Shown one piece after another: positions 1 to 36,000 of a stretch of 64,000 nucleotides of DNA (its first letter is position 1; every line of letters starts with the position of its first letter). Where the stretch lies: the IMG/VR virus record IMGVR_UViG_2718218360_000008; one strand, 5' to 3'. The position numbers are program-made. This DNA comes from a virus (lineage: Duplodnaviria > Heunggongvirae > Uroviricota > Caudoviricetes).

Positions 1-3000
1 CATTAGTGTGAAAGATATGACAATTACGGTAAACGGCGTGGCGACAGGTAAGGTGCAGATCCCTGTGGTGAGCGGAAATGGTCAGTTCGCCGCAGTGGCT
101 GAAGTCACCGTTACTGAAGCGGGCGCTGCAGGGTAAACGGAGGTAATACATGTTTCTGAAAACAGAACAATTTGAATATAACGGTGTGTCCGTCACGCTT
201 TCCGAATTGTCTGCGCTGCAGCGGTTTGATTATATAAAGTTTGTTTCAGACGCAGAACAACAGGAGACAACGAAGCATGATGTCGTGCACATTAACCAGC
301 GATATCTGGAAACGGCATCCCTGCTTGTGGCGATGTCGCTATGGCATTCCCATTCCCTCAAAGGCACTCTGGCCTCTCCGGAGACAGAGATGCAGCAGAT
401 CCGCCGTGAAGTGATGCTGGGATGGCCTGCTGATGCACTGAATCAGGCAACGAACCGGGTGCTTTATCTTTCAGGTATGCTGGATAACCGGCACGATGCC
501 GATCCTGAACAAACCGGTAAAGCAGAAGCGACTGAGTCGGTAACATCAAAAAAGCATTCGAAGGCGAGCTGAACTTTGTCCTGAAACTGGCGCGAGAGAT
601 GGGGAGACCCGACTGGCGCGCCATGCTTGCCGGGATGACATCCACCGAATATGCCGACTGGCGACGTTTTTACTGCACGCATTATTTTCAGGATACCCAA
701 CTGGACGCTCATTTTTCCGGGCTGATGTACGCCGTACTCAGCCTGTTTTTTGGCGATCCGGATATGCATCCGGCGGATTTCAGTCTGCTTGCTCCAGCGT
801 GTGAGGAAGAGCAGACGGAGATGCCGGACGAGGAAGAAATGCTGATGCAGAAAGCGACAGGAGTTGCCGGAGGCGTCCGGTTCGGAGGGGACGGAGGGCG
901 CGATATTTCACCTTCTGCGGATGTGGTGGATGTCAGCGAGGATGATGTTGCATTAATGATGGCTTCAGCGGGGATTTCCGGAGGTGTGAGATATGTCCCA
1001 GCCAGCGGGTGATCTGGTTATTGATTTGAGTCTGGATGCGGCCCGGTTTGATGAACAGATGGCCCGGGTACGCCGTCATTTTTCCAGTCTGGAGGCGGAT
1101 GCCAGAAAAACCGCCAGTACTGTTGAACAGGGGCTGAGCCGACAGGCGCTGGCGGCACAAAAAGCCGGGATATCAGTCGGACAGTATAAGGCTGCCATGC
1201 GCACACTGCCCGCACAGTTCACGGATATTGTCACTCAGCTTGCCGGTGGTCAGAATCCCTTCCTTATCATGCTGCAGCAGGGGGGGCAGATCAGCGATTC
1301 ATTCGGTGGACCGCTCAGCCTGCTTACCCTGCTGAAGGAGGAACTTCTCGGGATCAGGGATGCCTCTGAATCATCAGAGGAGTCGCTGTCAGATACGGCA
1401 AATGCACTGGCTGAAAATGCCCGGAATGCCGGTGAGCTGGGACGATTTATGTCGGTGGCCCGTGTGGCGGCAGGTGGCGGGGTTGCCGTACTGGCCGCGC
1501 TTGCTGCCGCCGCCTGGCAGGCAGAGCAGGCTGACCGGGCCTTATTGCGTTCACTGATCCTGACCGGAGGGGCGGCTGCCACCACAACGGCAGAATTGTG
1601 GAAAATGGCCGGGGTGATCAGCGATGAAGCCGGTGGTGGTATCAGACAGGCGGCAGAAAATCTGGCCCGTCTGGCAGAAAGCGGGAAATATACCGCCGGG
1701 CAGCTACGGATCATGGGGGAAACCTCTCAGAGATGGCTGCAGACGGTGGGGGACGATGCCGGGAAGGTGGAAAAAGCCTTTGAAGGGATTGCAGCAGATC
1801 CGGTGAAGGCGCTGGCCTCCCTGAATCAGCAGTATAACTTCCTGAGCGTTTCCCAGTTACGCCATATTGATGAGCTTGAGCGCACGAAAGGTAAACAGGT
1901 TGCGGTGACGGAGGCGATGTCCCTGTTTGCGGATGTCATGAATGCACGTCTGGAGCAACTTGATAAAGCGGCCACGCCGGTGGAAAAAATCTGGGACGAT
2001 GTTAAAACCTGGACTTCTGACGCATGGGCATGGATAGGTGATCATACACTGGGGGCACTCAGTCTGATCACTGACGTGGTGGCCGGAACCGTTGAACAAG
2101 TGAAGCTGCTGCTTGTGCAGGGGGATCTGGCGCTGGCTGAATTTATTCAGTCAGCCTGGGAAACGACAAAGAATGTGCCCGGCGTTGGTGCGTTGTTTGG
2201 TGAACTGGCAGAAGAGAACCGCGTATTTATTGAGAAAACAAAACGCGATGAACTGGCGCTGAGAAAATCCATTGCGGAACGGGATGCGCGTATACGCCAG
2301 GGGGAAATGGGGTACATCAACCGCTCGCGTGCAACAGGCGTCAGCAAAGGTCCGGGGCAGCAGGAAGCCGTCAGCCGTCTGGCTGAAGAGCTGACAGGTA
2401 AAAAGCATACATCACCGAAAACGCGCTCTGCCGGGGAGAGGGAAGAGGAGCAGGCAAGAGAGGCTCTGCTTGCCCTTGAAGCTGAGCTCAGGACGCTGGA
2501 AAAACACAGCGGTGCGAATGAGAAAATCAGCCGGCAGCGCCGTGATTTATGGAAGGCGGAAAGTCAGTATGCGGTCCTGAAAGAGGCTGCCACGAAACGA
2601 CAGTTATCTGAGCAGGAAAAATCCCTGCTGGCGCATAAAGACGAGACGCTGGAGTACAAACGCCAGCTGGCTGAGCTGGGCGACAAGGTTGAATACCAGA
2701 AACGCCTGAATGAGCTGGCACAGCAGGCGGTGCGGTTTGAAGAGCAGCAGAGCGCGAAGCAGGCCGCCATCAGCGCAAAAGCCCGCGGTCTCACTGACCG
2801 TCAGGCGCAGCGGGAGTCTGAAGCGCAGCGTCTTCGGGACGTGTACGGTGATAATCCGGCTGCGCTGGCGAAGGCCACATCGGCACTGAAGAACACCAGG
2901 TCTGCGGAGGAGCAGCTTCGTGGAAGCTGGATGGCCGGGCTGAAGTCCGGCTGGGGCGAGTGGGCGGAAAGTGCGACGGACAGTTTTTCGCAGGTTAAAA

Positions 3001-33000: not shown

Positions 33001-36000
33001 CATCACCGTGTATGAAGATTCTCAACCGGGGACGCTGAATGATTTTCTCGGTGCCATGTCGGAGGATGACGTCCGGCCGGAGGCACTGCGCCGTTTTGAA
33101 CTGATGGTGGAAGAAGCGGCGCGTCACGCTGAGGAGGCGAAGAAGAATGCCGGAGAGGCGGAGACGTCCGCGAGGAATGCCGGCATATCAGCCAGTCAGG
33201 CAGAAGAGAGCGCGGCAAATGCTGACACTTCAGCAGGGGATGCATCGGAGTCAGCCCGGCAGGCGGCAGAAAGTGCAGCCGCTGCAAAGCAGTCAGAGGA
33301 GGCGTCCTCGTCCTCGGCCTCTGCGGCCGCTCAAAAAGCCAGTGAGTCATTACAAAGTGCAGCAGATGCTGAGTTGTCAAAAAAGACGGCAGAAAGTGCA
33401 GCCGGTAATGCAGCCAGGGATGCAACGACCGCAACAGAAAAAGCCCGGGAGTCAGCAGAAAGCGCACAGTCAGCGGAACAAAGCAGGATAGCGGCGGAAG
33501 AAGCCGTAAACCGAATCCCCACCGTGGTGGGGCCTCCCGGGCCAAAGGGGGAACCGGGGCCCGCGGGTCCTCAGGGGCCGAAGGGAGATAAAGGAGAGCG
33601 TGGAGACACCGGCCCTGTCGGGGCAACCGGTGAACGGGGACCGAGAGGAGATACAGGTCCGGCAGGTCCGCAGGGGCCGAAAGGTGACAGGGGAGAGCGG
33701 GGAGAGACCGGTCTGACGGGAAATGCAGGTCCACAGGGTCCAAAGGGAGATACCGGTGCGGCAGGCCCGGCAGGCCCACAGGGACCGAAAGGAGAAACAG
33801 GTGCGGCTGGCCCGGTGGGGGCAACCGGACCTCAGGGACCGAAGGGCGACCCGGGGGAGACACAAATACGGTTCCGTCTGGGGCCGGGAAACATTATTGA
33901 GACAAACAGCAATGGCTGGTTCCCGGATACAGATGGCGCACTCATCACCGGACTGACCTTTCTTGCCCCCAAAGATGCCACACGGGTTCAGGGTTTTTTT
34001 CAGCATTTGCAGGTCAGGTTTGGTGACGGGCCGTGGCAGGATGTTAAGGGGCTGGATGAAGTGGGCAGTGATACAGGCAGAACAGGAGAATGACATGAAT
34101 ATACTAAAAAAACTTATGCAGCGTCTGTGTGGTTGCGGAAAGCATGATGGCCGTGAACACGGGGAGTTACTTACAGCACAGCTGCGACTGGGACCGGCAG
34201 ACATTCTGGAGTCCGATGAGAATGGCATTATCCCGGAGCAGGCCAGGGTAATCACGCAGGTGGTGATACTGGATGCGGATAAAAAGCAGATACAGTGCGT
34301 GGTAAGACCGCTGCAAATTCTGCGTGCTGACGGGACGTGGGAAAATATTGGCTGGATGAAGTAACCCGACAGCTTCACAAAACCGGAGTCCGGCTCCGGT
34401 TTTTTTGTTGTCATGTCAGGGAGATGTTTGTTATGACTCCCTGTGTTTGGAATGAATATTTAAATAGGGAGTTTTGTCATGCCATCATTAGTTTCAGGTA
34501 TTCAATCATCCTCATTTTCCACCGGAATGCAGGTTCTTCGTGCTCAAATGGCCGCCAGTGGTGGTGGAGAAATTACAGTAGGCGGACAGACGGTTAGTAT
34601 CACATATAGTGAAACGGATGGTCGCTTTCTGGCGAGTGGAGGCAATAACAGTTTGCTTTCTGGATTATTACTTACAGGGCTTAATGGTGGTCCTGAAGCG
34701 CTCAGGGATATAATGTTGAGAATGGTTTCAGGTTCAGGTAACACACAATCACATGGTTGATATTGAGGGGAAAATATCACAATGTAAGTTTTCGGTTAAT
34801 ACGCAGAGCCTTCAGTGCCCATCCGAGGCGGTTCGATGCCCAATTATACTGGATAAACCAGAAGAAGGTGTGTTTGTTAAAAATTCAGAAGGTTCTTTGG
34901 TTTGTACCTTATTTGATTCGATTTCTTTTTCTCATTTGGTTCGTGACGGTGGGAAGCACCCGCTAACACGAGAACCAATAACGTCATCAATGATTGTAAG
35001 TCAAGAACAATGTATTTATGATCAAACCAAAGGAAACTTTGTTATAAAATAAAGTTAATATATTTTTTCTATAAAGTAATATTTTACATCAGTAATCTAT
35101 ATCAAAACGCCACAGACATTTAAAATATCAGATGTTGTCTGTGGCTGATACACTCAGATTATACGTGAAAGGTGCTTGACGTTACTCTGTGTTTGAACCA
35201 ATCTAAGACAATACGGCTAATGCATGTATATTATTTTGATGCATTCGCTTGCTGTATGTTTTCTGATTGGCCAAATGTCCTGTCAATTAATCCTACTGGT
35301 TCTACGGGGGCATTTTTGGGAATGATCCAACCACTTTCACTGATACTGCCTCTTGTAAGATATTTAACTTTTGCTTTGACGATAACTAAGTGATGTCCAC
35401 GGCTAAATCGGTCAGCAACGCTAATATCTGTTGTGTATTCTGGTTCAATTCTACCACTTTTTATTTGCAGTTTTGCAATATCTTCAGAAACAGGACTTAC
35501 ATTTGGGTTTGCAATCTCGGCTCCCCCTGCGGTACTATAAGAAACAATGTTTTCAGCCTGAGAGGCAATAGTTCCTCGGCATAATGTTACCTCTGTCATT
35601 CCTGCATCATGATCACCGTTTTTGAATTTTTTGTAGATATTTTGTACATTTTCTTCTTCGCTAGGATATAAGTCCTCTGATATCGCTGGCAACGTTTCCT
35701 CTAACTCAGGTGAGTCATCAGTAATATCGAGAAGCTCCTCATCATATCCTATATCGCCTTCTTTCAGTTCTGAATATGGCTTATCCGTATGTCGAATAAG
35801 TCCACCTCCTTTTAATCCGTCAGCTTGATAAAAGTTACCATCAGAGTCTTTATAAAACTTTACTAATGAATTTTTACCGTTATCGGTAAATGTACCTGAG
35901 TAAATGTTAGAGTTTGATTCTTTTGTTAATTCTAACTCTCTATTATTGTATTTTATTTTGTTTGGCATCTCATTGGATAAAGGTTGGTATGAGTGTTGTT

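Follow-up and report, generated by a model that had tools for sequence, protein, structure and literature searches.

Reciprocal hybrid tail modules and a homology-free tail-to-lysozyme join in an ompW prophage cluster of Escherichia coli O157:H7 type: a probable assembly product

Results

Two tail modules are reciprocal hybrids of two prophage lineages

We analyzed a 64,000-nucleotide (nt) stretch of DNA, IMG/VR virus record IMGVR_UViG_2718218360_000008, which is hereafter called the window. Genome comparisons showed that the whole window is lambdoid prophage DNA of the Escherichia coli O157:H7 type, from a prophage cluster at ompW. It begins with a tail module (copy A), which runs directly into a 5'-truncated lysozyme gene and a set of packaging, head and tail genes (unit B) that includes a second copy of the tail module (copy B); effector cargo and a further prophage (unit C) follow. 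Both the repeat and the truncated endolysin are truly present in the sequence. As read from the assembled sequence, the join of copy A to unit B (the A/B junction) is, on balance, likely to be a poorly supported or artefactual assembly join, and the fusion of tail and lysis genes is probably not a feature of the living genome.

Both tail copies were compared, per kilobase (kb) and at diagnostic sites, with two parents. Parent P is the canonical O157:H7 type, represented by the prophages of strains FRIK2455 (L006) and 7409 (L003), and parent Q is the prfC prophage of O111:H8 strains (L004 and L014). Gene coordinates were carried over from annotated relatives, and insertions and deletions are referred to as indels. 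The main features of the window are as follows.

1–8804, plus strand: P-type part of copy A, from the 3' end of gene V to the 5' two-thirds of gpJ
6972–8804, plus strand: stretch X of gpJ in copy A, no difference from 29333–31165 in copy B
8805–9722, plus strand: patchy P/Q zone in the 3' part of gpJ of copy A, from diagnostic sites
9926–12071, plus strand: Q-type part of copy A, 1 substitution and 0 indels relative to O111:H8 prophage L004
12071–12072: A/B junction, Q tail end joined to nt 16 of a type-1 lysozyme gene
12072–13352, plus strand: lysis-cassette remnant, lysozyme gene without its first 15 nt, then Rz
13764–22523, plus strand: packaging, head and proximal tail genes of unit B, 0 substitutions relative to L004
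22388–29304, plus strand: Q-type part of copy B (3' end of V, gpG, gpT, tape measure, gpM, gpL, gpK, gpI, 5' end of gpJ)
29447–34437, plus strand: P-type part of copy B, 0–1 mismatch per kb and no indels relative to FRIK2455 (L006)
34438–40263: low-GC P-type effector cargo, identical to that of FRIK2455 and YB14-1
40264–40440, plus strand: 3' fragment of ompW with the attachment (att) core at 40270–40298, then four copies of CTCTGCAAAAC
40446–64000: unit C, a complete-looking ompW prophage that runs past the window end
60648–64000, plus strand: second repeat, lysis/terminase region of unit C, matching unit B at 12085–15432

The initial annotation had described two near-identical 12-kb tail modules 22 kb apart. 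Self-BLAST bore out the repeat, with 1–898 matching 22388–23284 at 94.9% identity and 1120–12072 matching 23497–34437 at 97.2% over 10,961 nt with 22 gap openings; the spacing of the copies is 22,362–22,387 nt, and about 220 nt (899–1119) are unrelated between them. Near-identity held only in part, as the identity is mosaic, ranging from the difference-free 1.83 kb of stretch X (6972–8804 and 29333–31165) down to approximately 90% at 4.5–6.5 kb. A second direct repeat was found between 12085–15432 and 60648–64000 (97.9%, spacing approximately 48,565 nt), which means that a third late region exists, namely that of unit C. Within this repeat, unit B is unit-C-type at 12850–13571 and L004-type at 12072–12600, indicating that the lysis remnant is itself a mosaic or a blend. 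A reading of the 48.6-kb spacing as a phage concatemer was rejected, since 1–12071 does not recur at +48.6 kb.

The comparison with the parents showed that the two tail copies are reciprocal hybrids, copy A reading P then Q and copy B reading Q then P. Copy A is P-type to 8760, with 3 substitutions and 0 indels relative to FRIK2455 and no difference from strain 7409; it is patchy at 8805–9722, where P and Q alleles alternate over 3–300 nt, and Q-type from 9926 to 12071. Copy B and the part of unit B that precedes it are Q-type as far as 29304; P-type sequence then extends from 29447 across the cargo up to the att site at ompW. The Q parts of copy A and unit B make up one contiguous 22.4-kb segment of L004 (12001–34378), circularly permuted and with essentially no substitutions. 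Formally, the arrangement would correspond to a circular 22.4-kb Q late-gene block placed inside the P tail operon via one exchange in stretch X of gpJ. Within X, both copies have the P allele at the diagnostic sites scored (7086 to 8760 in copy A), and from 29447 onward copy B has nothing but P alleles; an X that is P-type twice is not expected from a single reciprocal exchange with an L004-type donor.

The patchy allele of copy A was found in none of 5,426 complete E. coli genomes (best match 99.3%), though both parental alleles are common there, and neither the hybrid gpJ of copy B nor either whole hybrid tail occurs in that set. The gpJ of O157:H7 strain 4276 was considered as a natural Q/P hybrid and rejected, as it is merely intermediate and belongs to another prophage, at dacD/sbcB. 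In canonical O157:H7 (FRIK2455), a single P tail module lies directly before the same cargo, in one prophage that ends at ompW'-yciE-trp.

These results bear on the earlier suggestion that a late region had been tandemly duplicated. A simple duplication of one prophage's late region would account for the end-to-start polarity of the junction for the Q segment. It would also have to yield two copies of the same sequence, but the copies differ by up to 10% at 4.5–6.5 kb, are of different lineages on opposite sides of X, and the 5' part of the upstream copy is P-type rather than Q-type. We abandoned this suggestion, as the copies are reciprocal chimeras of two prophage lineages, and regard a simple duplication as hardly credible.

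The A/B junction lacks the hallmarks of a prophage boundary

The tail module does abut a 5'-truncated endolysin, as annotated initially. Homology on the tail side stops at 12071 (...GTTTGTTAGGA), and from 12072 (CCGCTATGG...) the sequence is that of the lysozyme gene from nt 16 onward, the first 15 nt being lost. The junction unites position 34378 of L004 with position 12001, that is, the end of the Q segment with its start, and the tail-side breakpoint lies 3 nt inside Q's own cargo. No homology was found at the join 12071|12072; the motif AGGAA is present beside the break in both parents.

No att site was found near 12071, the 29-nt ompW core being present once in the window (at 40270), and no integrase, immunity or replication gene lies between 12072 and 34437, as unit B starts at nt 16 of the lysozyme gene. 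A 21-bp attB-in-prophage sequence, known from Nakamura et al. 2021 (PMC8112680), is likewise absent from the junction; its single copy in the window, at 39944–39964, is unoccupied. Since att site, integrase and homology are all missing, the A/B junction does not qualify as a head-to-tail prophage boundary of the att type. Searches showed the junction to be absent from the 5,426 complete E. coli genomes, GTDB genomes, IMG/VR, Joint Genome Institute (JGI) metagenomes and phage records. Exact-protein look-ups of frameshift-specific and junction-spanning open reading frames returned nothing informative, one tape-measure fragment matching other frameshifted assemblies.

Several candidate precedents and sources were considered and set aside. 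Three genome matches (H5, H1 and H4) were rejected as examples of a tail-fibre/lysozyme join, since in their annotation the lysis cassette runs into a 3' remnant of gpJ, which is the opposite event. Stx2c-converting phages were rejected as the Q donor, their identity being 100% over the last 372 nt before the junction but 92–96% elsewhere. An origin of the tail-side breakpoint as a contig break where two Q-type tail ends diverge was not supported, because L004 and the complete C-type prophage both continue with GGAATGTTCAG, nor does the lysozyme-side breakpoint coincide with a boundary of allele homology, which lies 13 nt further in. A recurrent deletion of the opposite polarity, which fuses the lysis cassette to a 3' gpJ remnant, is present in L001 (20420), L010 (11390) and L011 (10354), defective prophages of complete genomes of Shiga toxin-producing E. 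coli (STEC), in which the head and most tail genes are deleted.

The initial annotation had also proposed head-to-tail tandem prophages. Such a boundary does exist in the window, at 40270–40298, between the cargo and unit C. The att core CCAGTGTGGTACATGGATATCGATACCAC is located there, and the downstream unit starts with int/xis. YB14-1 shows the same layout, with a boundary of cargo and ompW' followed by the int/xis of a second prophage, while SCPM-O-B-7615 has unit C as the only prophage at an intact ompW site, aligned as a single piece at 99.9% identity and with a matching attL layout. Copies of CTCTGCAAAAC lie just upstream of the unit C integrase gene, four in the window, three in YB14-1 and four in SCPM-O-B-7615. 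Given the layouts in FRIK2455, YB14-1 and SCPM-O-B-7615, the boundary between cargo and unit C at 40.27 kb is an ordinary att-mediated tandem-prophage boundary.

The proposal failed at the A/B junction, and it could be saved there only if integrase-mediated tandem prophages at one att site had later suffered a deletion that fused the tail end to the lysis cassette, with no homologous exchange. True att-mediated tandems at 40.27 kb, here and in YB14-1, and the frequency of internal deletions fusing lysis and tail genes in defective prophages speak for such a history. It would require, however, that the upstream prophage carried the Q 3' end and the downstream one the Q 5' remainder of the same lineage, with 0–1 substitution, and that the other halves of both were P-type; no P5'/Q3' or Q5'/P3' parent is found in the 5,426 genomes, and the precedents found have the opposite polarity, joining lysis genes to a 3' gpJ remnant. 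We consider this history very unlikely.

Sequence errors are concentrated in unit B and at the joins

Errors were counted against the appropriate parent, segment by segment.

1–8760: 3 substitutions, 0 indels
9926–12069: 1 substitution, 0 indels
12072–12600: 0 substitutions, 5 deletions
12850–13600 (unit-C-type): 3 substitutions, 5 indels
13600–29304: 0 substitutions, 12 indels (11 homopolymer-associated, 11 deletions)
29447–40391: 22 substitutions (2 before 40299, the rest in the divergent ompW 3' end), 2 compensating indels in the divergent ompW end
40392–64000: 28 substitutions, 3 indel bases

The counts show that 12072–29333 carries approximately 30 one-base indels, with 0 substitutions over approximately 16 kb plus 3 in the 0.75-kb Rz stretch, as compared with P-type flanks that are free of indels (1–8760 and 29447–40298) and 3 indel bases in the 23.6 kb of unit C. 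Their density is U-shaped. About 22 fall in the 1.8 kb to the right of the junction. The central 13 kb contains 5, and the final 2.4 kb ahead of the switch from Q to P another 6. The stretch to the right of the junction, with approximately 12 indels per kb, many of them outside homopolymers, is the most error-dense part of the window, whereas the unit C copy of the same lysis region is flawless (0 indels). Relative to L004, unit B has indels at 13694, 13812, 15237, 16257 and 20438, and copy B has 1-nt deletions at 23133, 24842, 27012, 27907, 28325, 29137, 29195 and 29333.

Unit B had been described as a full packaging, head and tail unit. The gene order is indeed complete, running from the lysis remnant through terminase, portal, capsid and tail to 34364; the genes themselves are not intact, as 10 of the 23 mapped are broken, nine of them by 1-nt indels, and the lysozyme gene is also truncated. 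Every gene broken by an indel has an intact reference counterpart, and the breaks are 1-nt indels. One possible explanation for this is that unit B is an old prophage remnant in natural decay and that its frameshifts are real pseudogenizing mutations, and genuine prophage pseudogenes (the NleG-like and DUF4765 genes) do lie nearby. The mutation spectrum is not biological, however, with 12 indels (11 homopolymer-associated) and 0 substitutions over 15.7 kb relative to a prophage of another serotype, and 5 deletions and 0 substitutions in the lysozyme remnant. Indels without substitutions against such a prophage argue for a technical origin, and natural decay appears extremely unlikely.

The patchy zone of copy A contains 1-nt deletions at 8822 and 9271, both exactly on columns that differ between P and Q, and a 1-nt insertion at 9708. 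Among the window-specific deletions in the tail copies, three of nine fall exactly on P/Q-differing columns (0.4 expected) and five of nine within 2 nt of one (1.4 expected); on the evidence of the consensus, deletions placed in this way appear to be the signature of a mixed pile-up. Blending of alleles is confined to the Q-type sides next to X (8805–9722 in copy A and 27–29.3 kb in copy B) and never occurs on the P-type sides. We infer that low or mixed support from reads underlies the indel errors, which would make the join a false one.

The large terminase gene of unit C was also found to lack 1 nt at 63120 as compared with all references (GGTGGTG to GGT-GTG), within the part of this unit that has a near-twin in unit B. 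This single deletion is probably another technical error.

Other features of the window

No inverted repeats (self-comparison) and no tRNAs (ARAGORN) were found within the 64-kb window. The genes of copy A, all on the plus strand, are as follows.

1–136: major tail gene V, 3' end
150–572: gpG
599–1012: gpT
993–3605: tape measure
3602–3931: gpM
3931–4629: gpL
4640–5383: gpK
5380–5961: gpI
from 6208: gpJ, 5' two-thirds P-type
9753–10352: lom
10417–11730: tail fibre
11732–12001: tail-fibre C-terminal gene, then a terminator hairpin and a tfa remnant ending ...GTTTGTTAGGA

The genes of unit B, including copy B, are likewise on the plus strand.

12072–12586: lysozyme remnant, 5 deletions and 0 substitutions relative to L004
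12884–13352: Rz, unit-C-type, several indels
DUF1441 small-terminase-like gene: broken
14238–16359: large terminase, broken, 2 frameshifts
W-like gene: intact
16568–18070: portal, intact
18060–20039: ClpP-protease/capsid fusion, intact
DUF2190 gene: 1 indel
Connector genes, gpU and V (21771–22523): intact
23337–25981: tape measure, frameshift at 24842
gpI: 2 indels
gpJ, 5' end: 3 deletions
to 32048: gpJ, remainder
32116–32715: lom
32780–34093: tail fibre
34095–34364: tail-fibre C-terminal gene

An 11-mer, GATGTTTGTTA, at 12058 and 34423 marks the sharp end of the conserved tail-fibre module, beyond which the cargo differs in every prophage. It occurs once more in the immunity region of unit C (46071–46081), with approximately 0.03 occurrences expected by chance, and might be a mosaic boundary sequence or a coincidence.

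The cargo and unit C contain the following genes and sites.

34479–35052: NleG-like DUF1076 pseudogene
35231–38618, minus strand: DUF4765 pseudogene
39075–39724: transposase remnant
39944–39964: 21-bp attB-in-prophage site, unoccupied, 1 mismatch
40446–41576, minus strand: unit C int (int/xis together 40446–41802)
54133–54954: unit C Q
57182–59128: unit C DUF6645 gene
60621–61154: unit C lysozyme
61453–61920: unit C Rz
62333–62809: unit C DUF1441 gene
from 62806: unit C large terminase, 1-nt deletion at 63120
Unit C also carries xis, exonuclease, immunity, replication, RelE/ParE, methylase, small RNA and holin genes

FRIK2455 and YB14-1 carry the same frameshifts in the NleG-like (DUF1076) and DUF4765 genes, which shows that the cargo pseudogenes are genuine, unlike the frameshifts of unit B.

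In unit C, Rfam identified three prophage-encoded small RNAs at 56634–57034, upstream of the DUF6645 gene. These are a tRNA-like element at 56634–56693 (37 bits), which was missed by ARAGORN and is annotated as tRNA-Met in a relative; STnc100 at 56779–56971 (140 bits); and the anti-GcvB small RNA AgvB at 56973–57034 on the minus strand (96 bits). At the holin start (59809–59825), unit C has a 2-nt insertion (AG) between two ATG codons as compared with SCPM-O-B-7615 (ATGTACCAGATGG versus ATGTACCATGG). The insertion puts the upstream ATG in frame (MYQMEK...), giving a motif that resembles a dual start.

Discussion

We prefer the reading that the A/B join is a product of assembly. The true chromosome would then carry a plain P prophage with its effectors and a single tail module, followed by prophage C across a proper att boundary, with Q-type late genes elsewhere. 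Reads from the canonical P5'-X-P3' tail and from Q-type late regions may have been threaded into a loop through X, yielding the reciprocal P/Q and Q/P hybrid tails together with one novel join of a tail end to lysozyme. The Q-type reads may have come from unit C's own late region, from another Q-type prophage, or from both, and the homology-free join could stem from a chimeric read, an abutted contig end or a finishing step. The exact DUF6645 protein of unit C was found on one public contig only, an O157:H7 chromosome (ANW40062.1, A9L45_11325) that lies outside the RefSeq complete set searched. The neighbouring RefSeq protein numbers (WP_065763498-500) are those of intact Q-type tail fibre, J and I proteins annotated in L004, which suggests that an intact Q-type tail may be present at another place in that genome.

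An assembly product predicts four features that are seen here, namely consensus quality that collapses at the joins, contamination restricted to the Q sides, deletions placed on paralogue-diagnostic sites and an X that is P-type twice. Consensus quality falls at the joins relative to both the flanks and the paralogous copies, the consensus carries signs of mixed paralogues, and blending on the Q sides alone is the outcome expected when canonical P5'-X-P3' reads are mapped onto a false structure. The caution in the initial annotation that the arrangement might be an assembly artefact thus gains support from internal evidence: the indel distribution, the blended alleles and the uniqueness of the junction. 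An untrimmed overlap of a circular contig was rejected as its cause, because it would give two copies of one lineage.

Several observations weigh against an assembly product. The case rests on the assembled sequence, and repeat-induced misassembly by itself does not give a homology-free junction, so that an extra event must be postulated. The left side of the junction (9926–12071) is clean, and the switch from Q to P in copy B is razor-sharp. Indel errors in repeated regions can survive in correct assemblies where polishing skips reads that map to multiple places. The tail-side breakpoint lies 3 nt past a natural module boundary and AGGAA microhomology flanks the break, so that real illegitimate recombination could have produced it, and a genuine Campbell-type homologous insertion with a subsequent deletion would leave precisely this anatomy.

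It belongs to classical lambda genetics that a phage can integrate into a resident homologous prophage through general recombination. In such a real structure, a circular Q phage, after infection or induction, would have recombined into the resident P prophage within stretch X of gpJ. This Campbell-type crossover, mediated by RecA or Red, would give tandem P-left/Q-right and Q-left/P-right hybrid prophages. An illegitimate deletion of approximately 25 kb, starting 3 nt beyond the Q tail module and ending at codon 6 of the Q lysozyme gene, would then have removed the Q cargo, attP, int, the early genes and the holin, stranding a second set of virion genes in P, and the indels would be unpolished long-read errors in a repeated region. 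Such a history explains the reciprocal hybrids and the end-to-start join elegantly, and every step is known biology. The rebuilt 22.4-kb L004 segment with essentially no substitutions, the reciprocity that a Campbell-type event demands, and the AGGAA of both parents at a break next to a natural mosaic boundary are all in its favor. It is also documented (PMC8112680) that PPompW recombines with other lambdoid prophages and that complex prophage clusters exist at ompW.

The evidence on the other side is, in our view, heavier. At each diagnostic site, a Campbell-type event should leave one copy donor-type and the other recipient-type, whereas in X both are P-type, so that the donor must already have had a P-type X or an extra step of gene conversion is needed. 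A real insertion leaves unexplained why quality collapses at the junction while the twin region of unit C is clean, and it accounts for the Q-side-only blending and the deletions on P/Q-diagnostic sites only with extra assumptions. Neither an intermediate nor either hybrid allele occurs in the 5,426 complete genomes. We therefore regard a real insertion as possible but rather unlikely.

If the join is an artefact, the window is a quality flag. The prophage and gene counts of this O157:H7 genome would be inflated, some ten pseudogenes and two hybrid tail-tip alleles would be spurious, and the arrangement might be mistaken for a prophage duplication, a topic of real interest in the biology of Shiga-toxin phages. 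If the join is real, the window would hold a clean footprint of one lambdoid phage inserted into another through homology and then domesticated by a deletion, and would show prophage pools of enterohemorrhagic E. coli (EHEC) reshuffling tail and host-range modules. The two sets of virion genes, with reciprocally hybrid tail-tip and tail-fibre genes, would then be a route to new host-range combinations in EHEC prophages. Such a "prophage-in-prophage by homology", entering inside a tail-tip gene instead of at an att site and then losing its lethal early and lysis-initiating half, seems to us a doubtful though conceivable account. Either reading is known biology, and the structure, if real, is a documented example of known mechanisms and no new kind of system.

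The window resembles the PPompW clusters of STEC and enteropathogenic E. coli (PMC8112680) in having a lambdoid prophage with type III secretion system effectors at ompW, a second prophage across an att boundary, the 21-bp attB-in-prophage sequence in the effector cargo, and recombination among lambdoid prophages. It differs from the tandem and prophage-in-prophage arrangements described there in that the A/B junction is not an att site, unit B has no integrase and the 21-bp attB is unoccupied; the insert is only the late half of a phage and sits within the tail operon.

With the Campbell-type integration of lambda double lysogens the window has in common its reciprocal hybrid repeats on either side of a circularly permuted donor, and a crossover placed in an identical stretch that both partners share. 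In the window as assembled, by contrast, the donor lacks its early half, with an apparent homology-free deletion join in its place, and the shared stretch is recipient-type in both copies. The defective lambdoid prophages L001, L010 and L011 of O157 and non-O157 STEC likewise show an illegitimate fusion of lysis-cassette and tail genes. In these loci, the lysis region contributes its 5' part and gpJ its 3' end, and the morphogenesis genes are lost, whereas the window joins a tail end to the lysis cassette and adds them.

Long-read assemblies of prophage-rich EHEC genomes can contain false duplications or joins, and residual indels where read support is low or mixed. The window shares with such artefacts a unique homology-free junction, indel-only errors at the joins, blended paralogue alleles and deletions at paralogue-diagnostic sites. 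It differs from a plain untrimmed overlap at contig ends, the trimming of which has been described (PMC5359411), in that its two copies belong to two lineages.

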